A stretch of DNA of 64,000 nt from Candidatus Eiseniibacteriota bacterium (GTDB lineage: Bacteria; Eisenbacteria; RBG-16-71-46; CAVPCR01), in NCBI GenBank assembly GCA_963823555.1, contig CAWGMA010000004.1, positions 448,001-512,000 of the forward strand, read 5' to 3'. The notes beneath the pieces are model-generated. The model had not been told where the DNA came from and made no database searches. It saw only the letters and a program-made list of their open reading frames with translations. Both the position numbers and the translations under genes were made by a program. Shown piece by piece: positions 1 to 28,907 of the stretch (position 1 is the first letter of the stretch; each line of letters starts with the position of its first letter).

Positions 1-1185
1 CAGGTCGTTGGGCCGTTCGCCCGCTGGGTGCATGTCCACCGCTTCGAGCCGCAAGAACTCGGCGGTTGCGTGCTCGAGGATCGAGTCGAATATGCGTTGC
101 CCCTGGGTGCCCTGGGCCGCTGGGCCGGAGGTGGCTTGGCTCAGTCCGAAATCAAGCGGTTGTTTCGCTACCGGCACGCCATGACGCGCGGGGATCTGGA
201 GATTCATGCGCGATTCAAGGAGGTGGCCCCGATGCATATCGCCATTACCGGATCCCGCGGTCTCCTGGGATCGAGCCTGGTGCCCTTCCTGACCGCGGGT
301 GGACATCGCGTCACGCGGATCGTGCGCCGGCCCCGGACAGGCGGCCATCTCCCCAGCGCTTCAGGACTGAGCTGGGATACGGTGCATGGCATCAGCGATC
401 CGTCGCTCCTCGAAGGCATCGATGCCGTGGTGCATCTGGCCGGCGAGAACATCGGGGCGGGTCGCTGGTCGGCGGCACGGAAGACCAGGATCCGGCAGAG
501 CCGCGTCGACGGCACGCGACGGCTTGCGGAGACCATCGCCGGCCTCGAGCAGCCGCCACGGGTCCTCGTGTGCGCCTCGGCCATCGGCTACTACGGGAAC
601 CGCGGTGAGGAGCTCCTCGACGAGAACAGCCTCGGCGGTAGGGGCTTCCTCGCCGATCTGTGCCGGGAGTGGGAGGCCGCTGCCGAGCCCGCCGTGCGCG
701 CCGGGGTGCGGACCGTGCACCTGCGCTTCGGGGTGATCTTGAGCCCGGCGGGTGGTGCTCTAGCCAGGATGTTGCCGCTGTTCCGGCTCGGGGCCGGCGG
801 TGTCCTGGGTTCCGGCCGGCAGTTCATGAGCTGGGTGGGGATCGACGATGCGGTCGGTGCCGTCTTGCACGCCTTGGCGAGCGCATCGGTCTCCGGTCCG
901 GTGAATGTGGTATCGCCCGAACCGGTGACCAACGCCGAGTTCACGCGTATCCTGGCCCGAGTTCTGGGTCGTCCGGCGTTGATGTCGGTGCCGGCCTTTG
1001 CGCTTCGCCTCGCCTTCGGCGAGCTCGCTGATGAGACGCTCCTCTCGAGTCAGCGCGCGGCGCCGGCCCGTCTCCTGGCCACCGGCTTTCGCTTCCGCGA
1101 GGCCGGTCTCGAAGGGGCGCTGCGCGGTCTCCTGGGCCGTGAACACGAGGAGACCGCGGGGAAAGGCGCCCAGGGCGCTACGTGA
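1..1185 (+). CDS. TIGR01777-family NAD-dependent epimerase/oxidoreductase with N-terminal SRPBCC domain (5' end outside window)
   Basis: Frame open from base 1 (QVVGPFARWVHVHRF, SRPBCC-like), then Rossmann motif IAITGSRGLLG, VHLAGENI, SAIGYYG and C-terminal LLSSQRAAPARL. Confidence 0.9.
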   Translation, partial: QVVGPFARWVHVHRFEPQELGGCVLEDRVEYALPLGALGRWAGGGLAQSEIKRLFRYRHAMTRGDLEIHARFKEVAPMHIAITGSRGLLGSSLVPFLTAGGHRVTRIVRRPRTGGHLPSASGLSWDTVHGISDPSLLEGIDAVVHLAGENIGAGRWSAARKTRIRQSRVDGTRRLAETIAGLEQPPRVLVCASAIGYYGNRGEELLDENSLGGRGFLADLCREWEAAAEPAVRAGVRTVHLRFGVILSPAGGALARMLPLFRLGAGGVLGSGRQFMSWVGIDDAVGAVLHALASASVSGPVNVVSPEPVTNAEFTRILARVLGRPALMSVPAFALRLAFGELADETLLSSQRAAPARLLATGFRFREAGLEGALRGLLGREHEETAGKGAQGAT

Positions 1186-1287
1186 CCGTGCTCGGCTCGA
1201 CGAAACTCCGGCGACCGCATAGACTCCACGGCTCGAGTCCTGCCCGTAACCGGGAGCCCGGTTCCGGCCCTTCATGGTTGGAGGATC

Positions 1288-2847
1288 ATGGCGAGGGATC
1301 TACGTTCTCTGGCGGAAACGCGCGTCGGCGCCCGGGCGCGCAGCGCCCCGGATGCGCCGCGTCAGCGCGCCGCGGGTATTCTGCTGCATCCGACCTCTCT
1401 CCCCGGGCCGTTCGGCATCGGGGATCTGGGCCCGGATGCCCATCGTTTCATCGATCTCCTGGCCGACTCTGGACATCGTGTCTGGCAGATGTTGCCGCTC
1501 GGGCCGCCCGGGTACGGGAACTCCCCCTATTCGGCGCGCTCTGCCTTTGCCGGCAACGCGTTCTTGCTCTCTCCCGCGCTCCTGGCCGATGAGGGTCTGA
1601 TCGCGCCGGGCGAGCTCAAGTCGGCTCCATCCTTCCCCGCAGGGCATGTCGATTTCAGCGCCGTGGTTGCCTGGAAGGAAAGGCTCTTCCGCAGCGCCTT
1701 TCATCGCTTCCAGGATCGGGACGGACGGGCCGAGCTCGAGGCCTTCACCGCGGCGAACGCGAGCTGGCTTCCAGACTACGTGCTGTTCATGGCATTGCGA
1801 GCCCACCACCCCGGGGGATGGCACGAATGGCCGCGGGAGCTCGTGCGTCGCGAACCCGCCGCACTGGCTGGCGCCGGAGCCCAGCTCGCCGAGGAGGTGG
1901 CCTACCACACCTTCCTCCAGTCTCGCTTCGCACAGCAGTGGGCCGCGCTGAGGATCCATGCGCAAGATGCCGGCGTTCGCCTCTTCGGCGACATTCCCAT
2001 CTTCGTCGCCGACGATTCGGCCGACGTATGGGCCCATCAGAGTCTCTTCGAGCTCGATGCCAGGGGGCGCCCGCTCGTGGTCGCCGGGGTCCCGCCCGAC
2101 TACTTCTCCGCCACCGGGCAGCTGTGGGGCAATCCGGTCTATCGCTGGGATACTCTCGCCGCCACCGGATATCGATGGTGGATCGAGCGCTTTCGCCGCA
2201 CCTTCGAACTCGTCGATATGGCCCGCATCGATCACTTCCGTGGCTTCGAAGCCACGTGGCAGGTGCCCGCCGGAGAAGAGACCGCCGAGCGCGGGGCCTG
2301 GGTGCCGGGTCCCGGGCTCGAGCTGTTCCGCGGCGTCGAGAGCGAACTCGGCCGGCTTGCCATCGTGGCCGAGGATCTCGGTCTGATCACCGAGCAGGTC
2401 CGCATCCTCCGTGATGCCACTGGCTACCCTGGAATGCGCGTGCTGCAATTCGCCTTCGAGGGGGATCCCGGCCATCCTTTCCTTCCACACAACTACGTGC
2501 CCAACACGGTCGCCTACAGCGGCACGCACGACAACGACACGACCCGTGGCTGGTATGCGTCCCTGGAGACCGATGGACGCGAGAAGCTCGCTCGGTATCT
2601 CGGGTGTCCGGTCGATGGTGATCGGGTGGTGGATCACATCATTCGCCTGGCGTATCAGTCGGTTGCCGACCTGGCCGTGATCCCGATGCAGGACGTGCTC
2701 GACTTGGGCAGTGCGGCGCGCATGAACACGCCGGCCGTGCCCAACGGCAACTGGGAGTGGCGCTTTGCATGGGATGACGTGAGGCCGGAACGCTGGGCCT
2801 GGCTCGAGGCCCTCGCTCATGTTTACGGCCGCCGGCCGGATTCCTAG
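1288..2847 (+). CDS. malQ: 4-alpha-glucanotransferase (amylomaltase, GH77)
   Basis: GILLHPTSLPG, GDIPIFVA, GVPPDYFS, RIDHFRGF, AEDLG, THDNDT motifs; GGAGG RBS. Confidence 0.97.
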   Translation: MARDLRSLAETRVGARARSAPDAPRQRAAGILLHPTSLPGPFGIGDLGPDAHRFIDLLADSGHRVWQMLPLGPPGYGNSPYSARSAFAGNAFLLSPALLADEGLIAPGELKSAPSFPAGHVDFSAVVAWKERLFRSAFHRFQDRDGRAELEAFTAANASWLPDYVLFMALRAHHPGGWHEWPRELVRREPAALAGAGAQLAEEVAYHTFLQSRFAQQWAALRIHAQDAGVRLFGDIPIFVADDSADVWAHQSLFELDARGRPLVVAGVPPDYFSATGQLWGNPVYRWDTLAATGYRWWIERFRRTFELVDMARIDHFRGFEATWQVPAGEETAERGAWVPGPGLELFRGVESELGRLAIVAEDLGLITEQVRILRDATGYPGMRVLQFAFEGDPGHPFLPHNYVPNTVAYSGTHDNDTTRGWYASLETDGREKLARYLGCPVDGDRVVDHIIRLAYQSVADLAVIPMQDVLDLGSAARMNTPAVPNGNWEWRFAWDDVRPERWAWLEALAHVYGRRPDS

Positions 2848-2882
2848 ATCGAGCGGGCAGGGCCGCGCCGGTCACGGCTAGG

Positions 2883-4355
2883 TCATCCGGGCTCCGTCGT
2901 CCGGGTCAGGAATCCGCCCTTCGTCATCCGTCGCGAGTCCAGCACGCGGTCGAGCTCTTCCGGAGGCAGAACCCTCATCTCGAGGGCCACCTCGCGCACG
3001 CTGCGCCCGCTCGCCGCCGCTTCCTTGGCGATATCGGCTGCGGCATCGTAGCCGATGATCGGAGCAAGGGCCGTGGCAAGCGCCAGTGATCTCTCGATCC
3101 GATGGGCGATGGACTCCTCGTCGGCGCGCAGATCGCGCACCAGACGAGCCTCGAAGTTGCGCGTGGCGGCGGCCAGGATGCCGATCGATCCCAGGAGGTT
3201 CAGCGCCATGACGGGTAGCATCGCGTTGAGTTCGAAGTTTCCGCCAGCGCCGGCCAGCGAGACGACAAGGTCGTTCCCCATCACCTGAGCGCAGACCATG
3301 ATCAGCGACTCGGCGATGACGGGGTTCACCTTGCCGGGCATGATCGATGAACCAGGCTGCACGGCCGGCAAGATCAGCTCGCCCAGCCCGAGTCGGGGCC
3401 CCGAGCCGAGCCAGCGCAAGTCGTTCGCGATCTTGGTCAGTGCCACGGCGGTGCCGCGCAGGGCGCCCGACACCTCGACGGCGGCATCGCGAGCGGATTG
3501 GGCGGCGAAGTGGTCGGTCGCTTCGCGGAGTGGTAGGCCGGTGCGATCGGCGAGGATCCGGATGGCGCGCGGAGCGAACTCCGGGTGGGCGTTCAGGCCG
3601 GTGCCGACCGCCGTCCCGCCGAGCGGCAACTCGGTGAGGGATTCGGCGCTGCGACGGAGTCGGGCGCTGGCTTGCTCGATCTGCGTCGAGTAGCCGCGGA
3701 AGACCTGCCCCAGCGTGACCGGAGTGGCATCCTGAAGGTGGGTACGGCCACTCGTCACAATGGCAGCGAATTCGCGGCTTTTGCGTGTCAGCGTGGTCTG
3801 GAGGGTTTCAAGGGCCGGCAACAGATCGTCGCGGAGTTGTGTCAGCGCAGCGAGATGGATCGCCGTGGGGATCACGTCATTGGAGGACTGGCAGAGATTG
3901 ACGTGGTCGTTGGGATGGACTTCCCGCGAGCCGATGGCGCCGCCAAGCATCTCGATCGCCCGGTTCGCGATGACTTCGTTGGCGTTCATGTTGGTCGACG
4001 TGCCGGAGCCGGTCTGGAAGATGTCGAGCACGAACTGATCGTCATGCTGCCCGCCGGCCACTTCGCCGGCAGCGGAGATGATGGCGTCACCCCGCCGCCG
4101 ATCCAAAAGTTCGAGATCGGCGTTGGCTCGAGCCGCAGCCCACTTGATGAGTCCCAGCGCAGCGATGAATGAGCGCGGGAAACGAAGGTCCGAGATGGGG
4201 AAGTTCTCGATGGCGCGCTGGGTCTGTGCGCCGTAGTAAGCCTTGGCGGGGACGCGAACGTTCCCCATCGAGTCCCGTTCGATGCGCTCCGGACCCTGTC
4301 TTGAGCCCATGGGTTGTTTTCCTCGCCTGACCGGGGAGATGTGGTTGGCGTTCAT
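2883..4355 (-). CDS. fumC: Class II fumarate hydratase (start may be 4310)
   Basis: RIERDSMG, QTGSGTSTNMNANE, HPNDHVN, GRTHLQDA, signature GSSIMPGKVNP. Confidence 0.93.
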   Translation of the reverse strand: MNANHISPVRRGKQPMGSRQGPERIERDSMGNVRVPAKAYYGAQTQRAIENFPISDLRFPRSFIAALGLIKWAAARANADLELLDRRRGDAIISAAGEVAGGQHDDQFVLDIFQTGSGTSTNMNANEVIANRAIEMLGGAIGSREVHPNDHVNLCQSSNDVIPTAIHLAALTQLRDDLLPALETLQTTLTRKSREFAAIVTSGRTHLQDATPVTLGQVFRGYSTQIEQASARLRRSAESLTELPLGGTAVGTGLNAHPEFAPRAIRILADRTGLPLREATDHFAAQSARDAAVEVSGALRGTAVALTKIANDLRWLGSGPRLGLGELILPAVQPGSSIMPGKVNPVIAESLIMVCAQVMGNDLVVSLAGAGGNFELNAMLPVMALNLLGSIGILAAATRNFEARLVRDLRADEESIAHRIERSLALATALAPIIGYDAAADIAKEAAASGRSVREVALEMRVLPPEELDRVLDSRRMTKGGFLTRTTEPG

Positions 4356-4423
4356 CTGGAGACGCAGCCGACGATAGCATGGGCCTGCGCGCCATGGTGG
4401 GAACGGGCGGCGCGGGCACCTCC

Positions 4424-4553
4424 GGGGCGAATTGTCCCGGGATGAGGCATAATGCCCCTGAAAACTGGGGGGTGCCGGCCACCCAGCTCCAATGCTAAGC
4501 TATTAATCAACAATATGTTAAAGGATGTCATCAACATTGGCACGTTCATTGAA
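4424..4553 (+). promoter_or_regulatory. Putative sigma54 promoter: paired enhancer-like palindromes, AT-rich (IHF-like) segment and -24/-12 element
   Basis: GGGGCGAATTGTCCC (4424) and GAGGCATAATGCCCC (4444) start 20 bp apart; AT-rich 4491-4535; TGGCACG-TTCA-TTGA at 4538-4552 (GA instead of GC at -12); NtrC-family activator encoded downstream. Confidence 0.55.
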
Positions 4554-4562
4554 TAGCACCTC

Positions 4563-4845
4563 AGGCGAACGGGCCCCGGTGCAGCGCACGCAAAGGGGCG
4601 ACGCTGCCGCGAACCCCTTGAGGGCCGGGGATGGCGCGGCGCGCGCAGCGGGGCTCACCATTTTCGACTACCGGCGAACGGTCGCCGGGACAAAGCCTAG
4701 GTTCACCGGCCCCGGGGAGCGCGTCCCGGGGCCCACCTCCTCCGCGAGCTGCCGATCGTCGTGCGGGGGCGCCACATGCCTCGGCGCAGCTGCTTCGGTG
4801 CAGTTGCCCATCCCCCGGGGCGTGCTGGTGCCCCCGTCGTTTTTT
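4563..4845 (+). ncRNA. Candidate ~280-nt sRNA or structured leader (boundaries approximate)
   Basis: No credible ORF; hairpin 4708-4733; long stem 4764-4784 pairing with 4815-4836, followed by T6 (4840-4845); CACCTCCTCC at 4734-4743. Confidence 0.45.
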
Positions 4846-5048
4846 GTTGTGGTTCGTGCTCGCAGGCGCGGGTACTTCGCCGGCCAGAGTCCGGGCGGAG
4901 CGCTCCTGGCGATAGGGGCTGCTAGACTCGCTCTCGGAGCTTCGCCTCGAAGCCGGACCTCTGGAGATGTTCACTCCCTGACGGCCGGGCTGGTTGCCAG
5001 AAGTCCCAGAGTGGGACCGGCTCACCAGTCACAAGAGCCTCACCTGCC

Positions 5049-6728
5049 ATGCGCCTAGGTTATCGCCTGAGCTTCGCCCTGATCGCAGCCTCCGTGCTCG
5101 TTACCACCCTGTTCGGGGTGCTGGCGATGCGCGATGAAAGACGCGATCTGATCAACACGATGAAGCACGAGACCTGGATCACGGTGGCCACGCTCCAGCC
5201 CGCCATCGAGTTCGCTCTCGTGCGCCGCGACTCCACTCAGGTTCGAGAGCTGCTTGACGGCCTCGGGCACCAACGCATTCTCGGCGCCGCCATTTTCCAC
5301 CCCGATGGCTCCCTCATCATCGGATCCACGGCGTTGCCCGTGACGAGCGCACCAGAGGAGCCCGACGTTCATCAGGTGCTCGCCGAGACGGAACCTGCGC
5401 ACGCCTTCATCGATATGCTCGGAGAGCGGGTCTACGCCTATTCGGTGCCTCTCCTCGATCAGGAGGGCAATCCGCATGCGGTCCTGGCCGTTTATCACCT
5501 CACCGGATACCTGGAGGATGATCTGGCGCGAGAGCGGCTGGTTCTCCTCGTCACCCTCCTCGCGGGGAGCGTCATTACCGCCGGCCTCGTCTTCTTCATT
5601 GTCAACCGTGCCGTGTCGCGACCGATCGACGGCCTGATTCGCAAGGTCACCGCTCTGCGGCGGGGCGAGTTCCCTGGGGCCGTCACCGCGGGTGAGGAGT
5701 CTTCGGCGAGTGCGGACGCCGTCGAGCCGGGCGCCGCTCCGGCGGCGAGCACGCCCGTGGGGGAGCCAACCCCGGAACCGGGTCCGGTGGCCGCTGCTCC
5801 TGTCGCCGCGCACGTGACCCGCGAAACCGCGTTGCAGCCGAACGGCCAGGGGGACGAGCTCGGACGCCTGGCCCATGAGTTCGATCGTATGGCGGAGAAC
5901 CTGGAACGTTCACGCGAGGCGCTCATCGAGGAAGCGGGGAAGCGTATCATGGTGGAGCGCGGCCTGCGCCGCTTCGATCGCATGGCAACCCTCGGCCAGC
6001 TCACCTCGAATCTGGCGCACGAGGTCGGCACGCCATTGGGCGTCTTGCGGGGGCGTGCCGAGTTCCTGCTCAGCGAAGTGTCCGATCGGCCTGAAGCGCG
6101 GCGGGAGGTCGAGATCATCATCGCCCAGATCGATCGCATCACACGAACGATCGAACGGTTTCTGTCCGTATCTCGCACCTCGCCGCATGCTCCGGAGCGG
6201 ATTGTTGGTGACGAGCTGGTGCGCGAGGCGGCTGCTCTCGTCGATCTCGAATGCCGCCGCCAGGGGATCCGGCTCACGGTGGAGCCGAACGCCGGGGATC
6301 TGGCCATCCGCGGTCAGCGCGATGGCTTCATGCAGGTTCTCCTCAACATGGCGGTCAATGGCTTGCAGGCGATGGCGGAAGGGGGCGAACTACGGATCGC
6401 TTCACGGCCTGCCGAGCTCCGCGGCATCCCCGCGCTCGAGTTCGAGGTGTCCGACAACGGCAGCGGCATTCCCGAGGAAATCAAGAAGCAGATCTTCGAG
6501 CCGTTCTTCTCCACGCGCGGGACCACCGGACTCGGTCTGTTCATCTCCCACAGCATTGTGCGCGAACATGGCGGCGTGACCGTGGTGGAAAGCGAGCCGG
6601 GGCGGGGGTCGACCTTCACCGTCCGCATTCCGGTCACCGAGCAGGATGAAGGCGGCGGCGACGCCCCGACCGAGGGCGAGGATCCGGCGGGGGCCGGGGC
6701 AGCGAGCCAGCCGCAAGGAGGCAGCTAG
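5049..6728 (+). CDS. Membrane sensor histidine kinase (HAMP-HisKA-HATPase)
   Basis: Two TM segments, HAMP, H-box LAHEVGTPL, N-box QVLLNMAVNG, DNGSGI, FEPFFST, GLGL. Confidence 0.95.
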   Translation: MRLGYRLSFALIAASVLVTTLFGVLAMRDERRDLINTMKHETWITVATLQPAIEFALVRRDSTQVRELLDGLGHQRILGAAIFHPDGSLIIGSTALPVTSAPEEPDVHQVLAETEPAHAFIDMLGERVYAYSVPLLDQEGNPHAVLAVYHLTGYLEDDLARERLVLLVTLLAGSVITAGLVFFIVNRAVSRPIDGLIRKVTALRRGEFPGAVTAGEESSASADAVEPGAAPAASTPVGEPTPEPGPVAAAPVAAHVTRETALQPNGQGDELGRLAHEFDRMAENLERSREALIEEAGKRIMVERGLRRFDRMATLGQLTSNLAHEVGTPLGVLRGRAEFLLSEVSDRPEARREVEIIIAQIDRITRTIERFLSVSRTSPHAPERIVGDELVREAAALVDLECRRQGIRLTVEPNAGDLAIRGQRDGFMQVLLNMAVNGLQAMAEGGELRIASRPAELRGIPALEFEVSDNGSGIPEEIKKQIFEPFFSTRGTTGLGLFISHSIVREHGGVTVVESEPGRGSTFTVRIPVTEQDEGGGDAPTEGEDPAGAGAASQPQGGS

Positions 6729-6730
6729 GC

Positions 6731-8092
6731 GTGGCCCACTGGAATGTGCTGATCGTCGACGACGATGAGGAGATGTGCCGCCTCCTGAGTGAGCACCTGG
6801 CCCGAGAGAAGCTGTTTACGTCCTATGTGCTCAGCGCGGAGGAGGCTCTGGATCACGTCGGGCGCTTACCTTGCGATCTCGTGGTGACCGACCTCCGTCT
6901 CGGCGAGACCACCATCACTGATCTGCTGCCCGATTTCCTCCGCCTCCGGCCCGGGCTGCCGATCATCATCATCACCGCCTTCGGAACTCTCGATTCGGCG
7001 GTCCAGGCGATGAAACTCGGAGCCTTCGACTACATCACCAAACCGTTCCCCCTGGCCGCGCTGTCCCTGGCTGTGCGGCGCGCACTCGAGCACCGGGAGC
7101 TCGAACACGAAGTGCGCGAGCTGCGCCGCAAACTGGGTGAGGAGGGTAGCGCCGCCTTGCGGCTGGTCGGGCGGAGTCCAGCCATGGCCAGGCTCAGGGA
7201 CCTCGTGGGTCGTGTGGCTCAGGCCAACGCCAATGTGCTCATCACCGGGGAGAGCGGGGTGGGGAAGGAAGTGGTGGCGCGGAACCTGCATGCGGCGAGC
7301 TCGCGCGCCGAGGCGCCCTTCGTCCCCATCAACTGCGCGGCGATTCCGGAGACCCTGCTCGAGAGCGAGCTCTTTGGTCACACCCGCGGTGCCTTCACCG
7401 GGGCGTCGGCTGAACGCCGGGGGCTCTTTGCCGAGGCCAGCGGTGGCACGCTGTTCCTCGATGAGGTGGCGGAGATGGCGCCGGCTCTGCAGGCCAAGCT
7501 CTTGCGCGTGTTGCAGGATGGAGAGGTGCGCCCGCTGGGGCAATCCCGGGCGATGCGGGTCGATGTCCGCGTGATATCAGCGACCAACCGCAACCCCGAA
7601 GAGGAAATGGCCGAGGGTCGCCTGCGCGAGGATCTCTTCTACCGTCTGAGCGTGCTGCACATCGAGATCCCGCCCCTCAGGGATCGACGGGAGGACATCC
7701 TGCTCCTGGCCGAGGATCTGCTCGCCAAGGCGGCAAACGAGCAAGGGACGTCCCCGCCGCGGCTCGATGCTGAAGTGCGACGCATTCTTCTCGATTACCC
7801 CTGGCCCGGGAACGTCCGCGAGCTCGACAACGTGATGCGCCACGCGCTGGCGCTGGCCAATGGCACGGAGGTCGGCCTCGAGGTATTGCCTCCTCGATTG
7901 CTCGGGCATGATCGCGAGCGGTCACTGCTCGGGCGAGCGGCTGGATCACAGCTCACGCTCGCCGAGCTCGAACGCCTCTACATTCTGGAGGTGCTGAAGA
8001 CGGAGGGCGGCAGCCGCACCCGGGCTGCCACCGTTCTCGGGCTGGACCGGAAGACGCTCTACCGGAAGCTCAAGTCCTACGGACAGGACTGA
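6731..8092 (+). CDS. Sigma54-dependent NtrC/AtoC-family response regulator
   Basis: Receiver (VDDD...TD...TK), Walker A GESGVGKE, GAFTGA, LFLDE, WPGNVREL, C-terminal Fis-type HTH. Confidence 0.97.
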   Translation: MAHWNVLIVDDDEEMCRLLSEHLAREKLFTSYVLSAEEALDHVGRLPCDLVVTDLRLGETTITDLLPDFLRLRPGLPIIIITAFGTLDSAVQAMKLGAFDYITKPFPLAALSLAVRRALEHRELEHEVRELRRKLGEEGSAALRLVGRSPAMARLRDLVGRVAQANANVLITGESGVGKEVVARNLHAASSRAEAPFVPINCAAIPETLLESELFGHTRGAFTGASAERRGLFAEASGGTLFLDEVAEMAPALQAKLLRVLQDGEVRPLGQSRAMRVDVRVISATNRNPEEEMAEGRLREDLFYRLSVLHIEIPPLRDRREDILLLAEDLLAKAANEQGTSPPRLDAEVRRILLDYPWPGNVRELDNVMRHALALANGTEVGLEVLPPRLLGHDRERSLLGRAAGSQLTLAELERLYILEVLKTEGGSRTRAATVLGLDRKTLYRKLKSYGQD

Positions 8093-21370: not shown

Positions 21371-22675
21371 GTGAAGAAGAACTACATCCTCGATACCAAC
21401 GTGCTCCTGCACGATCCCGGTGCGGCGCTGAGCTTCGATGATAACAGCGTCATCATTCCGATTCAGGTCGTCGAGGAGATCGACCATTTCAAGAAGGAAA
21501 TGAGCGAGCGAGGGCGGAACGCGCGCCAGATATCCCACTTCCTTGACAGCCTCCGTCACCAGGGGCACCTGGCTGAGGGCGTCCCCTTGCCCAATGGCGG
21601 GACCTTGCGCGTCGTGGTGAGCGGCGGCGAGGACGACGTTCCCGGTATCGGGCTCGACGGTACGGTCGACAATCTGATCCTCGCGCTCGGACTCCATCTC
21701 AAGCGACGGGAGCCGATGATGCCGCTCGTCCTCGTCACCAAGGATACCAACCTGCGAATCAAGGCCGACGCCATGGGTCTCATGGCCGAAGACTTCGAAG
21801 CGGGGCGAGTGCAGATCACGGAGCTCGACCGCGGTGACACCGAGGTCACGGTGGGACCCGAATTCATCGCTCGATTCAAGGAGGCCGGTACATCGCCGTT
21901 GCCGGCCGGGACCTTCTATCCCAACACCTATGTCATCTTGCGTGCCGGAGATGGGCCGCGATCGGTACTGGCGCGCGTCAATCCTGCCGCCGAAGGACTG
22001 GAGACGCTCCGCGTGCCCGGTGAACCGGTGTGGGGTATCTCTCCCCGGAACAAGGAACAGCACTACGCGCTCGATGCGCTCCTCGATGACCGCATCCAAC
22101 TGGTCACCGTGATGGGGAAGGCAGGAACGGGCAAGACGTTGCTCGCCCTGGCAGCGGGTCTGGCCAAGGTGGAGACCGAGTCCCGTTATCGGCGGCTTCT
22201 CATCAGTCGGCCGCTGTTCCCGGTCGGCAAGGACGTGGGCTATCTTCCCGGCGGCCTCGAGGCCAAGCTGGCGCCGTGGATGCAGCCGATCCAGGACAAC
22301 ATGACGCTGCTCCTCGAGCGCGTCGGTGTGCGTGACGTGGGGCATGAGCTCGATCGTTTGCTCGGTACCGTGGTCAGCGTGGAGCCGATCACCTACATTC
22401 GCGGGCGGAGCATACCCAACCAGTATATTATTGTGGACGAGGCGCAGAATCTGACGCCACTCGAGGTCAAGACGATCATCACGCGCGTCGGGGAGGACAC
22501 CAAGATCGTCCTGACCGGTGATGTCTTCCAGATCGACAATCCCTACGTCGATGAGTCCTCGAACGGCTTCAACTATGTCGTGCACAAGTTCCGGGATCAG
22601 GGAATCGCGGCCCACGTGGTCTTGCGGCGTGGTGAGCGTTCGGGGCTGGCGGAGCTGGCGGCCAACCTCCTCTGA
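21371..22675 (+). CDS. PhoH2-type PIN-domain plus PhoH ATPase protein
   Basis: PIN motifs YILDTNVLLHDP and TKDTNLRIKA; Walker A GKAGTGKT; YIRGRS, DEAQN, TGDVFQID. Confidence 0.95.
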   Translation: MKKNYILDTNVLLHDPGAALSFDDNSVIIPIQVVEEIDHFKKEMSERGRNARQISHFLDSLRHQGHLAEGVPLPNGGTLRVVVSGGEDDVPGIGLDGTVDNLILALGLHLKRREPMMPLVLVTKDTNLRIKADAMGLMAEDFEAGRVQITELDRGDTEVTVGPEFIARFKEAGTSPLPAGTFYPNTYVILRAGDGPRSVLARVNPAAEGLETLRVPGEPVWGISPRNKEQHYALDALLDDRIQLVTVMGKAGTGKTLLALAAGLAKVETESRYRRLLISRPLFPVGKDVGYLPGGLEAKLAPWMQPIQDNMTLLLERVGVRDVGHELDRLLGTVVSVEPITYIRGRSIPNQYIIVDEAQNLTPLEVKTIITRVGEDTKIVLTGDVFQIDNPYVDESSNGFNYVVHKFRDQGIAAHVVLRRGERSGLAELAANLL

Positions 22676-22775
22676 TCTCGATGCGGACCCGGCGCCAAGC
22701 GCCGAACTTAACAGGCGAATGGTAGATTCCTCTCGGCCGCCGGGTCGACCTCGCTACGCACCGCGTTTCCGGGCG

Positions 22776-22849
22776 TTATCCACAGCTTCTGTGCCGGGTT
22801 GAGCCCGGATTGCGCATGCAAGAGAGATTCCATCCACTGTTTATCCACC
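22776..22849 (+). promoter_or_regulatory. DnaA-box-like sites
   Basis: Perfect TTATCCACA at 22776-22784; TTATCCACC (1 mismatch) at 22841-22849. Confidence 0.45.
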
Positions 22850-22897
22850 GCTGGCTTCGCGACGGATGGTTTCACCGCATGTACATGCGCTTTTTCG

Positions 22898-22926
22898 TTG
22901 ACCTGACGCGAGTCCGGCGGTATTTT
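22898..22926 (+). promoter_or_regulatory. Sigma70 promoter for the large candidate ncRNA
   Basis: TTGACC (22898-22903), 17 nt, TATTTT (22921-22926); predicted +1 near G22933, the first base of the closing stem. Confidence 0.75.
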
Positions 22927-22932
22927 ACGCAC

Positions 22933-23796
22933 GGGTCGAGTGAGACCCGAGTTCGCGCGCCGACCCTCCCTCGGGAGGAGGCGCAAAACCCCAGGAGGGG
23001 CGGCGGTCTCGCGAGAGATCGCCAACCTCGGTGCCACGAAGACTCCGAGGGGCAGGGTAGGACCGCTTCGGCGAACCCACCTGAAGCCCGGGGGAGGATG
23101 ATCCGCAAGGGTCGCGGCGCCCGAGGCCATCAACCCCTGAAGGGGAGGAAACCCAGGGAAGCCAGTGTGCTGGCTCATGGTCTAACCACTGTGAGCAGGC
23201 TGCCACCCTCCGGGGGGATCAAGACCCGGGAGCCGAGCTTCGGCCAACGGCAGGCGGGTAGAGCAATCGCCGACGAGGCGAAGGCGATCTCCGGCAGGGA
23301 AGGCTTCGAAGGGCGAAAAACCTGCGAGCGCCACCGGGATGAAACAAGCCCGGACGGGTCGGGAGGAGTAAGCCGTCAGGAGGGTGAGAAACCCTGAAGG
23401 CGGAACGTTCGGGCGAGGCAAACCCGGACCGTGGACTCCCGATACCTCGAGCGCTGAGAGGGGAGAAACCTCAGGGGAGCAGTCGATCACTGGAGACAGG
23501 GTCGACGGCCCAACCTGGTGAACACTCTGAAGGGAAGCGAAAGCTCAAGAGAGGCTAGCTCACCGGATTCAATCGCGGACCGGTTGGCGCCGAGGGCGAG
23601 GAAGCCCCGTCGAGTGCGGTTCTACAAGGAGCCGTTCCCGGGGTGCCCGGTAACCAGTAGCCGGGCTACGAACCCTCGTTAGACTCTGAAGGGCAACGTA
23701 ATCCCATGAGAGGAGGTCCGTCGGTGGTGACACCGGCGGGCGGCCAGGGTGAGGCCCAAGGCTCCGGAGGGGAAAGCGAACCGACTCACTCGGCCC
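22933..23796 (+). ncRNA. Candidate large (864 nt) highly structured modular ncRNA, family unassigned
   Basis: 5' GGGTCGAGTGAG pairs with 3' CTCACTCGGCCC (12 bp, one G-U); TTCGC pairs with GCGAA; U-tract follows; many GNRA/UUCG hairpins; repeated module; only low-complexity shadow ORFs. Confidence 0.8.
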
Positions 23797-23862
23797 GTTT
23801 TCTTTTCTGCCGTTGGCTCGAATTCCGCCTGATCCTCACCTTGCGTCACCCCTCGGTTCTCC

Positions 23863-26298
23863 ATGACTGTGCAACTCCAGAAACACCTGTTGATCGCACG
23901 GCATCCCGGGTGGGGGGCACGGGTCATCTTGACCGCCATCGTCCTGGTTGAGGGCTTGCTCCTGGGCGGGAGCCCGGCCTGGGCCCGGAGCGGTGATCTC
24001 TTCGATGACCGGGTGGTGGGGATCGTGGAGGCGGTCATGGACCCCGCCGATCTGGCTCGCCTCCTGGATCCGGACAACGCCGAGAGCAACGAGTACCTGC
24101 CGGCACGGGTGCGGGTGCGGCATGGCGATCTCGATGAGCGCTTCCCGGGAGCCGGTCTCCGCCTGCGAGGCAACTACAGCCGGTATGCCCACAAGAAGGG
24201 CTTCAAGATCGCCCTCCATGCCTTCGAGCCGGGAGCCGAGATCGACGGAATCTCGAAGCTCAACCTGGTCGGCGAACACAATGACCCATGCATCGCGCGC
24301 GAGAAGATGGCGTTCGATGCACTGGCGGCGATCGGTGTTCCAGCCTCGAGAGTGAGTCACGTCCGCTTCTATCTGAACGGCGAATACCGGGGTCTCTACC
24401 TCCATGTCGAGGAAGTGGACGAAGCGTTCCTCGAGCGTCGTTTTGGATCCCCCTCCGGAAACCTCTACAAATGCCAGTATGTCAACCGCAATGCCAGTGC
24501 CGATCTCGTCTACCGGCAGGCGGAGGACTACGAGACACTCGGCGACGCCGACAAGCCGGTCTACGAGCTCACGTCCGACCGCCGCTCCGATTCATTCACG
24601 GACCTCGCGGAGCTCATCGCGGTCATCAATCGCACCCCGGACGAGCACTTCGTCCGCGAACTCGAGCGCGTGTTCGACGTCGAGGCCTTCCTGGCCACCA
24701 TGGCCTTCGACGCCCTGAGCGGCAGCTGGGACGGCTACTGGGTTGGCGCCAACAATTACTTCCTGTATCACGACCCCTTGCTCGGAAGGTTCCGCTTCAT
24801 CCCGCGCGACCTCGACATGACCTTCGGTCTCAACACGATCAGCAGCATCGACTACACGGAAGTCAACATCTACCGACTCGGTCGCTTCGATAGTCAGCGG
24901 CCGCTCGTCTGGCGGATGCTCGAGGAGGATCACTACCGGAACCTGTTCACCTTCTACGTGGAGAAGCTTCTCGCCGGCCCCCTGGATCCCCAGGTCTTCG
25001 CCGACCGGGCCGAGGAGTTGCGCACGCTGATTCGACCGGCGGCTCTCGATGACACGTATCGTACCCGCGACTTTCCCGAGCTCATCGACTACGAGGCCTT
25101 TGATCGCGCCTATGATGAGCGACTGGGCGGGCATGTGCATCATGGGCTCAAACCGTTCATGGCGGATCGGGCGGCGAGCGCGCGCCTGCAGATCGACTAC
25201 GAATCGGCCCCGCCGGCGATCTGGGGCGTGGCACCGCAGTGGGGACTTCTCGCTCCGGCGGCTCCCATGACCTTCCGGGCGGGGGCTTTCGATCCCGGAG
25301 GCCTGGATCGGGTCGAGTTCCATCTCGACGTGGGCCAGGGGTTTTCATCCTGGCCCATGCGTGACGACGGGATCAGTGGTGATGGTGCGGCGGGAGACGG
25401 GATCTGGGGCGCTGAAGTTCCAGGAGCCCCGGCCGGGGCTCGCGTCCGCTTCTACATTGCGGCTCGCGATCGATCCGGGTACCTGACGCGCTTTCCCGCG
25501 CGCGGGGGGGAGGATGCCATCGAGCTCGAGGTCCTCCGCGACGGCCCCATCATTCTCAACGAGCTCATGGCTCGGAACACGACGACGATCGGAGATGAAT
25601 GGGGAGAGTTCGAGGACTGGATCGAGCTCTGGAATCGCGGCCCGGCGGCGGTGGACCTGGGCGACTATCGGTTGACCGACAACCCCGCCGAACGCGATGT
25701 CTTCGCGCTCCCCGCGCTCCGGGTGGAACCCGGCGAGCGGGTGCTGGTCTGGGCGGATGGCGACGACGATCAGGGAGCCCACCACGCGCCGTTTCAGCTC
25801 GATGCGGACGGCGAGTGGATCGGTCTATTCAAGACAGCCGGTGGCGGTCGCTTCGATGCCATCGATGCCGTCCGGTTCGGCTCGCAGGCCGCCGATGAGA
25901 GCCATGGGCGAGTGGCGGATGGCGACCCGACCTGGGCGACCGTGCATCCGACGCCCGGGGCGCCCAACTCGCCGCAGGCCGTGGAACCCGGGTCGATGCC
26001 AGGGGATGGCGTCCCAGCGCCGCAGCTTGAGTTGCACTGGGTGCGGCCCAACCCGGTCCGCGACGAGTCGCTGATCCGCTTCGATCTCCCGGCCGGAGAG
26101 AGCGGCACGATCGATATCGTCGATGTCCACGGCCGGATCCGCCGGCAGCTTGTCGTGGACCCGGTGGCTGCGCGTTCGCAGGCGGTGTGGTGGAACGGAC
26201 GCGACGGAGATGGGCGGCGCGTGCCCTCGGGTATCTATTTCCTCCGCCTGACCGCTGCGGGCGAGTCCCGGACGACGACGCTCGTGGTGATCCGGTAG
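23863..26298 (+). CDS. CotH kinase-family protein with lamin-tail domain and C-terminal FlgD-Ig domain
   Basis: LRLRGNYSR, YRGLYLHVEEVD, WDGY...NNYFLY, IPRDLDMTFG; LTD ILNELMA...DWIELWN; C-terminal PNP...WNGRD...SGIYF. Confidence 0.9.
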   Translation: MTVQLQKHLLIARHPGWGARVILTAIVLVEGLLLGGSPAWARSGDLFDDRVVGIVEAVMDPADLARLLDPDNAESNEYLPARVRVRHGDLDERFPGAGLRLRGNYSRYAHKKGFKIALHAFEPGAEIDGISKLNLVGEHNDPCIAREKMAFDALAAIGVPASRVSHVRFYLNGEYRGLYLHVEEVDEAFLERRFGSPSGNLYKCQYVNRNASADLVYRQAEDYETLGDADKPVYELTSDRRSDSFTDLAELIAVINRTPDEHFVRELERVFDVEAFLATMAFDALSGSWDGYWVGANNYFLYHDPLLGRFRFIPRDLDMTFGLNTISSIDYTEVNIYRLGRFDSQRPLVWRMLEEDHYRNLFTFYVEKLLAGPLDPQVFADRAEELRTLIRPAALDDTYRTRDFPELIDYEAFDRAYDERLGGHVHHGLKPFMADRAASARLQIDYESAPPAIWGVAPQWGLLAPAAPMTFRAGAFDPGGLDRVEFHLDVGQGFSSWPMRDDGISGDGAAGDGIWGAEVPGAPAGARVRFYIAARDRSGYLTRFPARGGEDAIELEVLRDGPIILNELMARNTTTIGDEWGEFEDWIELWNRGPAAVDLGDYRLTDNPAERDVFALPALRVEPGERVLVWADGDDDQGAHHAPFQLDADGEWIGLFKTAGGGRFDAIDAVRFGSQAADESHGRVADGDPTWATVHPTPGAPNSPQAVEPGSMPGDGVPAPQLELHWVRPNPVRDESLIRFDLPAGESGTIDIVDVHGRIRRQLVVDPVAARSQAVWWNGRDGDGRRVPSGIYFLRLTAAGESRTTTLVVIR

Positions 26299-27860: not shown

Positions 27861-28907
27861 TCATTGGACTTCGATCCAGGTTGCTCCGCGCGGCACGACC
27901 TCGCCGATGCGGGATGCCCGGGGCGCACCGCGTGCGGCGAGTGCGGCCTGGAATGTGCCTTCGCCGGCGGGGGGGAGGCTCACCAGGAGTCCACCTGAGG
28001 TCTGAGGGTCGAAGAGCAGACGCTGGTCCGGAGCATCTCCCAGCTGCACATGAGGGGCCAGCGCCGCGGCGTTGTCCTTGAGGCCGCCAGGGAACACGCC
28101 CTCCCGGAAGAGCTCCAGGGCTCGCGGCAAGGTGGGGATCGCCTCCCAGCGCAGCCGGAAGGAGACGTCCGATGCCCGGGCCATGCTCACTGCGTGGCCG
28201 AGGAGCCCGAAGCCGGTGATGTCGGTGGCCGCATGCGCTCCGGCCTCGACCATGGCCGCCCCGGCGTCCCGATTGAGGGTGCGCATGGTGCGAATGAGCA
28301 CCCCAGTGGTTTCCGCGTCGAGGCGCTCGCGCTTGATCGCGGTGGAGAGGATGCCGGTCCCGAGCGGCTTGGTGAGCAGGAGCACGTCGCCGGGACGGGC
28401 TCCCCGGTTGCGCACGATGCGCTCCGGATGGATGCGGCCGGTGACGGCGAAACCGAACTTGAACTCGTTGTCCTTGACCGTGTGCCCGCCGAGGAGAGCC
28501 ACCCCTGCTGCCATGAGCACTTCCTGTGCGCCCAGCATGGTCTCGACCAGCACCTCGAGCGGCAGCCTGGTGTTGGGGAAGCAGACGACGGCGAGGGCCG
28601 TGGCCGGTTCTCCACCCATGGCATAGCAGTCGCTCAGGGCATTGGCCGCGGCCACGGCGCCGAAATCGCGCGGATCATCGACGATGGGGGTGAAGAAGTC
28701 GATGGTCTGGACAAGCGCCAGCTCGTCCGACACGCGGAACACCCCGGCATCGTCCCAGGTCTCGGTGCCCACCAGCACATCCGGATTGGGTGGGGGCGTC
28801 GGCATCCGGGTGAGGATACGGGCTAGATCCTCCAGCCCGAGCTTGGACGCTCAGCCGGCGCACTCGACCATGGCGGTCAGTTTCTGCTGGATATCGTCGC
28901 GGGTCAT
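27861..28907 (-). CDS. selD: Selenide, water dikinase with in-frame UGA (selenocysteine, codon 19)
   Basis: ATG 28907 reads MTRDDIQQKLTAMVECAG-UGA-ASKLG in frame into DDAGV, TIDFFTP, ANALSD, GGHT, DITGFGLLGH, DPQTSGGLL; the ORF track starts after the UGA. Confidence 0.93.
28819..28839 (-). promoter_or_regulatory. Putative bacterial SECIS stem-loop
   Basis: mRNA CGGGCUGG-AGGAU-CUAGCCCG begins 11 nt after the UGA at 28851-28853. Confidence 0.7.

Follow-up and report, generated by a model that had tools for sequence, protein, structure and literature searches.

A large structured RNA of several bacterial phyla, with a repeated 3x3 purine loop and DnaA-box-like sites upstream

The window analysed here is a stretch of 64,000 nucleotides from the genome of a Candidatus Eiseniibacteriota bacterium. 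Between a PIN-PhoH gene and a CotH/LTD gene it holds a single-copy gene for a non-coding RNA of about 864 nt (Table 1). An earlier note, made from the letters alone, had proposed an independently transcribed RNA at this place. A promoter scan found TTGACC-17-TATTTT where that note had put it, once compared with 0.1 +/- 0.3 times in shuffled sequence (50 shuffles). The claim that the first and last 12 nucleotides pair, together with UUCGC and GCGAA (22952/23776), held as well: the terminal helix 22931-22944/23785-23798 is 93% complementary, and both pairings are present in the minimum free energy (MFE) and centroid folds. The MFE of the RNA was -430 kcal/mol (z = -6.2), and none of 20 shuffles folded equally well. 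The strand is as purine-rich as had been described, with an AT skew of +0.20 to +0.47 across 23000-23749. The U-rich tail directly after helix P1 is likely to be the 3' end of the RNA; no separate hairpin terminator was called there in the terminator scan.

The earlier note had seen no credible protein in this interval, and the data agree. In a 9-sequence alignment of relatives, 16 of 189 indels were multiples of 3 and codon periodicity was absent from the substitutions (0.33/0.39/0.35); none of the three scanned ORFs overlapping the RNA matched Pfam. Indel lengths, the lack of a codon period and the lack of a Pfam match thus rule out a protein-coding reading of 22933-23796.

Table 1. Features of the RNA locus, in positions of the window
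Feature	Position	Strand	Details
PIN-PhoH (PhoH2-type) gene	21371..22675	+	Pfam PF13638 and PF02562; upstream neighbour in this lineage
DnaA-box-like 9-mer TTATCCACA	22776..22784	+	One of 14 perfect-consensus sites in the 4.6-Mb genome
Second DnaA-box-like 9-mer	22841..22849	+	One mismatch
Sigma-70-type promoter TTGACC-17-TATTTT	22898..22926	+	Promoter scan; -35/-10 columns conserved in 9 relatives
ncRNA	22933..23796	+	About 864 nt; predicted promoter, terminal helix P1, RNA contigs
Helix P1	22933-22944 with 23785-23796	+	Folding, complementarity
Arm D1	22989..23145	+	Loop M1 22993-95/23139-41, hairpin, inner arm with M2 23047-49/23090-92, hairpin
Arm D2	23152..23313	+	Loop M3 23155-57/23308-10, hairpin, inner helix, M4 23229-31/23252-54, hairpin
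Arm D3	23320..23462	+	Loop M5 23324-26/23456-58, UGAAA (23340-44) hairpin, inner helix, M6 23378-80/23396-98
Arm D3, T-loop-like 7-nt loop	23385-91	+	Caps M6
Arm D3, hairpin	23409-23427	+	
Arm D4	23469..23772	+	Loop M7 23473-75/23766-68, hairpin, inner helix, M8 23529-31/23706-08, hairpin 23722-35
Arm D5 (inside D4)	23543..23694	+	Loop M9 23547-49/23688-90, M10 about 23609-11/23637-39
Arm D5, hairpin with conserved AACC loop	23645-23666	+	
U-rich tail	23798..23808	+	Directly 3' of P1; RNA contigs stop at 23785-23795 in 3 of 4 runs
CotH/LTD gene	23863..26298	+	Downstream; not a conserved neighbour beyond close kin

The RNA is recurrent in environmental RNA assemblies. Among the matches listed, 20 of 24 runs contained 61-68% of the sampled words of 22700-24000, close to the RNA's own share of that interval (66%), and 15 runs are registered as RNA; these come from 12 studies, which sampled sediment, estuaries and aquatic sites. 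Contigs from four runs of four studies were identical to the window, with no differing letter, over 22940-23795. Their starts lie at 22940, 22941, 22946 and 22947, and their ends lie at 23795, 23793, 23785 and 23769 (a loose end in the last case), near those proposed in the earlier note, and depth in the flanking 2.1 kb was zero save for 0.66 in one bin of one run; these four runs were picked for containing the stretch, and as assembled contigs they carry no information on strand or level. In all four, the conserved hairpin at 23361-23408 reached a summed contig depth of 500-7,000 versus 10-330 in neighbouring bins, because many other family members map on that hairpin. The RNA family is diverse within these samples.

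BLAST returned matches in 13 of 61 relatives, of which 10, the window's genome included, were full or nearly full length. Searching 185,579 species genomes with a pattern built on the best-conserved hairpin gave 14 loci, all of them homologs by profile; by record label, seven belong to Candidatus Eisenbacteria, one each to Myxococcales, Deltaproteobacteria, Acidobacteriota and Planctomycetota, and three to others. In metagenomes the pattern occurred in at least 120 stretches, and each of the 80 loci examined was a homolog (E <= 5e-13). Contigs of 1,001-1,283 nt, with ends close to those of the RNA, made up 67 of these 80, and we take them to be transcript assemblies. When two mismatches were permitted in the hairpin pattern, carriers numbered 10 of 206 genomes in the window's phylum, 9 of 251 in the phylum of the two myxobacterial records, apparently Myxococcota, and 6 of 17 in one class of Planctomycetota. 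A tenth pattern-positive genome of the myxobacterial phylum (G286, locus L209) proved not to hold a homolog. In a sample of 201 Acidobacteriota genomes, searched with BLAST only, the query genome was the single match. Neither viral contigs (two patterns) nor phage and plasmid records gave a match.

The 101 family sequences share a mean identity of 55%, and family members range from 749 nt (L021) to about 2.2 kb; the longest (L240:8330-10700, in G336) has in arm D4 a 1.3-kb insertion that itself holds few clear copies of the repeated motif described below. Diverged copies occur at unlinked sites within single genomes, two in G207 (L214, L218) and three in G440 (L215, L219, L220); box-like words upstream and a hairpin terminator accompany the copies that were viewed. 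Sequences of one phylum mostly fall together in the tree, where those of myxobacteria form two clades and the deep branches are weakly supported, a pattern compatible with, and no proof of, long vertical descent with many losses. One relative (G043, L197:3570-3645) retains a remnant of about 70 nt from which the interior is deleted, while the paired ends, promoter and DnaA-box-like cluster are intact; one further gene lies between it and phoH. If the assembly is correct here, the RNA can be lost. In two others (L180 and L181, from G029 and G039) the contigs break 235 and 43 nt past phoH, where the RNA would lie, which suggests that fragmented genomes may hide carriers and that carriers are therefore probably undercounted.

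P1 is unrelated in sequence in homologs such as L052, L129, L234 and L237, with pairing retained, and in many loci it is preceded by a sigma-70-like promoter. Statistical support for end pairing across the family was weak, with better values than mismatched ends in 11 of 60 short contigs, whose ends are trimmed, and z < -2 in 17 of 37 genomic loci, where the test windows took in flanks.

To obtain the fold, we scored covariation by an APC-corrected G-test against a null of tree-based shuffled alignments, a procedure that is R-scape-like and not R-scape itself. The first alignment, of 86 sequences (95 reduced at 92% identity), gave 30 significant pairs at E <= 0.1; the second, of 101 sequences, gave 31 at E <= 0.05, comprising 29 Watson-Crick pairs and two AA/GG pairs. 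In the resulting fold, P1 closes a central junction with four arms, D1-D4, and a fifth, D5, is nested in D4. Each arm follows one plan: the short opening stem holds a 3x3 loop and is followed by a hairpin and an inner helix, then by another 3x3 arm and another hairpin. AA linkers are conserved 5' of the loop stems. The arms also cross-match by profile, unevenly (the D4b profile gave 59 hits on D4a and 47 on D1, reversed controls 0), a similarity that may reflect duplication or the shared loop alone. Arm D3 is the most conserved and holds most of the 42 columns conserved at 97% or more, with the conservation of M6 inflated because homologs were found with that stretch as search pattern. D3 has two T-loop-like loops, as the motif is defined in the accessible part of PMC4810234, and some members have a short loop in place of its UGAAA loop. 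None of the significant pairs belonged to a pseudoknot or kissing loop; loops of invariant sequence could form such pairs and leave no covariation.

Neighbouring A and B strands are nearly interchangeable, their local registers being mostly 70-96% pairable, and the single-sequence MFE favours several local hairpins (-430 versus -410 kcal/mol for the constrained fold). These local hairpins were rejected: the G-statistic was about 0 for all five, versus 24-154 for most long-range pairs. Since they do not covary, the hairpin AGC-GAAA-GCU (23536) listed by the earlier note does not belong to the conserved fold, and the single-sequence MFE fold of this copy is partly misleading; in the conserved fold, 23543-23546 covary with 23691-23694. 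Of the other tetraloop hairpins listed there, those at 23005, 23100 and 23722 keep their position with weak pair support, and those at 23064, 23237 and 23490 turn out to be variable arm tips. What that reading had missed are the five nested arms with their long-range pairing, the ten 3x3 loops and the DnaA-box-like sites upstream.

The 3x3 loop has the consensus 5'-YGNAG-3' / 5'-CANGR-3' and occurs twice per arm, ten times in the five arms. In the window's copy nine loops are intact; M10 is degenerate here and present in the consensus. Covariation places the nine in the same register, and RNAalifold independently predicted every one of the 36 flanking pairs compared. In the pooled counts for nine loops, one loop pair was AA in 731 cases, GG in 93, AG in 13 and GA in 7; the other purine pair was GG in 808 and AA in 15, and the middle pair is free. 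Parsimony on the tree counted 10 switches between AA and GG at M9 and 8 at M2, with mixed pairs in 3 of 100 and 0 of 85 cases, respectively. According to the accessible part of one study, A:A and G:G trans Watson-Crick pairs are isosteric and interchange at the HIV Rev site, and such purine pairs form protein-contacting sharp turns there and in rRNA (10.1101/098723). The AA/GG exchange indicates pairs of this kind, and we infer that both purine-purine pairs of each loop are trans Watson-Crick, so that they would kink the backbone and widen the major groove. Because covariation between AA and GG trans pairs is unusual in any one context, as far as the same partial text goes (10.1101/098723), the trans geometry of the loops stays at the level of inference. 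The RNA defines a recurrent 3x3 motif. The HIV-1 Rev response element offers a comparison of working principle only: by the available portion of that source, it has a purine-rich internal loop with an interchangeable G:G/A:A trans pair and binds a protein helix (10.1101/098723), whereas it is a viral cis element, and the loop here is symmetric and repeated ten times in a stand-alone bacterial gene.

Matching contig ends, homologs in several phyla and covariation together support the independently transcribed, end-paired large RNA that had been proposed, and we have next to no doubt that 22933-23796 is a real functional non-coding RNA. It is best explained as the stable, trans-acting product of a stand-alone chromosomal gene, in an RNA class not yet described. 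The earlier note's view that it belongs to no known class agrees with the searches. Rfam 15 covariance models gave no match in the window (best E = 0.73 in 22600-23950), and no family, GOLLD, ROOL, OLE, HEARO, raiA and introns included, reached its gathering score. In 14 diverse homolog loci the RNA was likewise without an Rfam match; the searches returned one hit at E = 0.17 and, on one metagenome contig (L079:1-142), the 5' part of an SRP RNA directly after the family RNA, as an adjacent gene or through chimeric assembly. RNase P, tmRNA, 6S and SRP RNAs are all found above cut-off elsewhere in the window's genome, and with no model match this excludes the RNA as one of the four or a substitute for one. 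As an intergenic, single-copy gene with its own promoter and no recurring linked enzyme gene, it is not a self-splicing intron or a transposon-encoded RNA either.

Among large RNAs, GOLLD and ROOL are the nearest in kind, being very large, multi-junction, free-standing, known from metagenomes, of unassigned function and variable in the 5' part. Unlike them, this RNA is built from a ten-fold repeated loop and has no tRNA island, prophage or phage context in the loci and records searched, and no covarying pseudoknot was seen among its significant pairs; there was no tRNA in the window and one in 20 neighbourhoods of up to 20 kb. MISL (RF03079) is similar in size, with a model of 751 positions. 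Run on five carrier genomes, that model gave nothing over cut-off and nothing at the RNA loci, its sole hit (E = 3.8) lying elsewhere. MISL consists mostly of independent hairpins, in contrast to the deep nesting seen here. OLE is described as a large chromosomal non-coding RNA as well, one proposed to organise a ribonucleoprotein particle; it differs in that its model does not match, it occurs in other phyla and no partner gene is shared among the neighbourhoods of our RNA. CsrB/RsmY-type sponges share the repeated motif in a stand-alone RNA and the many GGA words, whereas the repeats here lie in internal loops of long-range helices and not in hairpin loops, and CsrA is present in only 1 of 5 carrier genomes, too few for a general partner.

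The 9-mer TTATCCACA upstream of the promoter is a perfect match to the DnaA-box consensus. Its only other exact copies in the window's genome (G000) are at C1:1410731, C3:83127 and C3:99654, two of them within 12 kb of dnaA. Across 38 genomic loci the top de novo upstream words were CTGTGGA (20 versus 1 downstream) and ATCCACA (16 versus 0), both presumably belonging to the DnaA box. When up to one mismatch was allowed, boxes occurred upstream in 18 of 31 loci (36 minus 5 without a 3' end) and downstream in one, and perfect boxes in 7 versus 0; the loci are mutually related, and the downstream flank is no promoter control. No box was found in 13 of the 31, some owing to a wrong automatic start, several starts having been miscalled. 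Within 300 nt of the RNase P, tmRNA, 6S and SRP genes of the window's genome there were no DnaA-box-like sites. The placement of such sites upstream of the promoter is that expected of the DnaA regulon. The locus itself is not oriC; dnaA and the skew switch are on C3 near 95 kb.

In 21 neighbourhoods no neighbour gene was shared across phyla, and no reverse transcriptase, nuclease or transposase recurred; an HNH-domain gene lies downstream of the RNA in one locus only (L018). Ro60/Y RNA was dismissed as well, since a TROVE protein was present in 0 of 5 carrier genomes.

With ten equivalent non-canonical loops borne on radiating arms, the RNA looks better suited to multivalent binding than to a single active site, and the anatomy favours a scaffold or sponge over a ribozyme. 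We tentatively prefer, at somewhat less than an even chance, a DnaA-controlled multivalent scaffold or sponge for one protein. The 3x3 loops would present about ten equivalent docking sites to one abundant protein, arm D3 would be the tertiary core, and DnaA bound 90-200 nt upstream would set transcription of the RNA, tying its level to replication initiation or growth state. Against this stands the lack of a neighbour shared across phyla and the failure of PIN-PhoH, CsrA and Ro60 as general partners, and the repeated loops could equally be RNA packing elements. An RNA-only architecture like that of ROOL and GOLLD, in which the loops would act as bends or would receive the A-rich linkers and T-loops, and arm swapping through the interchangeable strands would build a homo-oligomeric cage, is possible yet rather unlikely. 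ROOL, GOLLD and OLE form RNA-only oligomers in the accessible parts of two reports (PMC12286853, PMC12990946), and the conserved AA linkers, the T-loop-like loops of D3 and the near-interchangeable A and B strands all fit; however, covariation fixes one partner per strand and includes no pseudoknot or kissing loop, and there is no tRNA-island or phage context. We consider it improbable that D3 is the active part of an RNA that binds a ligand or acts as a catalyst, the other arms serving as its scaffold. Interdigitated T-loops do bind the tRNA elbow in RNase P, T-boxes and the L1 stalk, as the portion available of PMC4810234 describes, and the T-loop-like pair and the conserved columns of D3 would suit such a role. 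The inflated conservation of M6, the exchange of the UGAAA loop in some members, the genome's own RNase P and the absence of a substrate-type neighbour speak against it.

The PIN-PhoH gene next door raises the question of whether the RNA is the partner, substrate or antitoxin of that helicase-RNase. The gene lies upstream of the RNA in 11 of 27 loci tested, in Eisenbacteria, an Acidobacteriota record and one unclassified record, and PhoH2 is a hexameric RNA helicase-RNase (PMC7390352, as far as its accessible text goes). Inside the window's phylum it tracks the RNA: 14 of 206 genomes have it, of which nine are RNA-positive, two are the genomes whose contigs stop 43 and 235 nt past phoH, and one carries the remnant. 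In the myxobacterial phylum, by contrast, 190 of 251 genomes have PIN-PhoH and 9 the RNA, never adjacent where seen, and only 1 of 6 RNA-positive Planctomycetota genomes has the gene. An obligate partnership is thereby ruled out, and adjacency in one lineage suffices to explain co-inheritance, which leaves a PIN-PhoH role very improbable. Hardest to credit is that selection acts on the DnaA-box cluster, as a site like datA or DARS, which the RNA only modulates through its transcription. The remnant in G043, where boxes, promoter and both RNA ends outlast the interior, would fit this; however, selection must act on the RNA itself to account for 31 covarying pairs and ten conserved non-canonical loops, and the locus is no origin.

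On the searches made, the RNA is new as a family and as a fold and, loosely, joins the large orphan RNAs; that the class is undescribed we regard as probable. The family was absent from the literature searched, mainly open-access texts, among them main-text passages of the paper on 224 motifs (PMC5737381). Bacteria have few classes of large structured non-coding RNA, and new biochemistry has come from each. This one is of GOLLD length or longer, and occurs in several phyla. Taken as a whole, the data could describe an old, multi-phylum, giant and self-similar RNA with five repeats of one arm and ten of one non-canonical loop, made under DnaA control and acting as a ten-valent particle which collects a protein or joins with its own copies; we place this just short of an even chance. 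If true, it would rank with the largest bacterial non-coding RNA classes other than rRNA and introns, its members reaching about 2.2 kb, and a large RNA particle would be tied to the control of replication. The fold gives sharp predictions, with ten equivalent loops that have A-A/G-G rescue built in and a DnaA-box-like promoter.

Elsewhere in the window, on the reverse strand, an AIRS-domain gene (27861-28805) has a short N-terminus and presumably resembles the selenophosphate synthetase gene SelD. The genome has a tRNA-Sec, and the true start of this gene may lie upstream of a recoded UGA.
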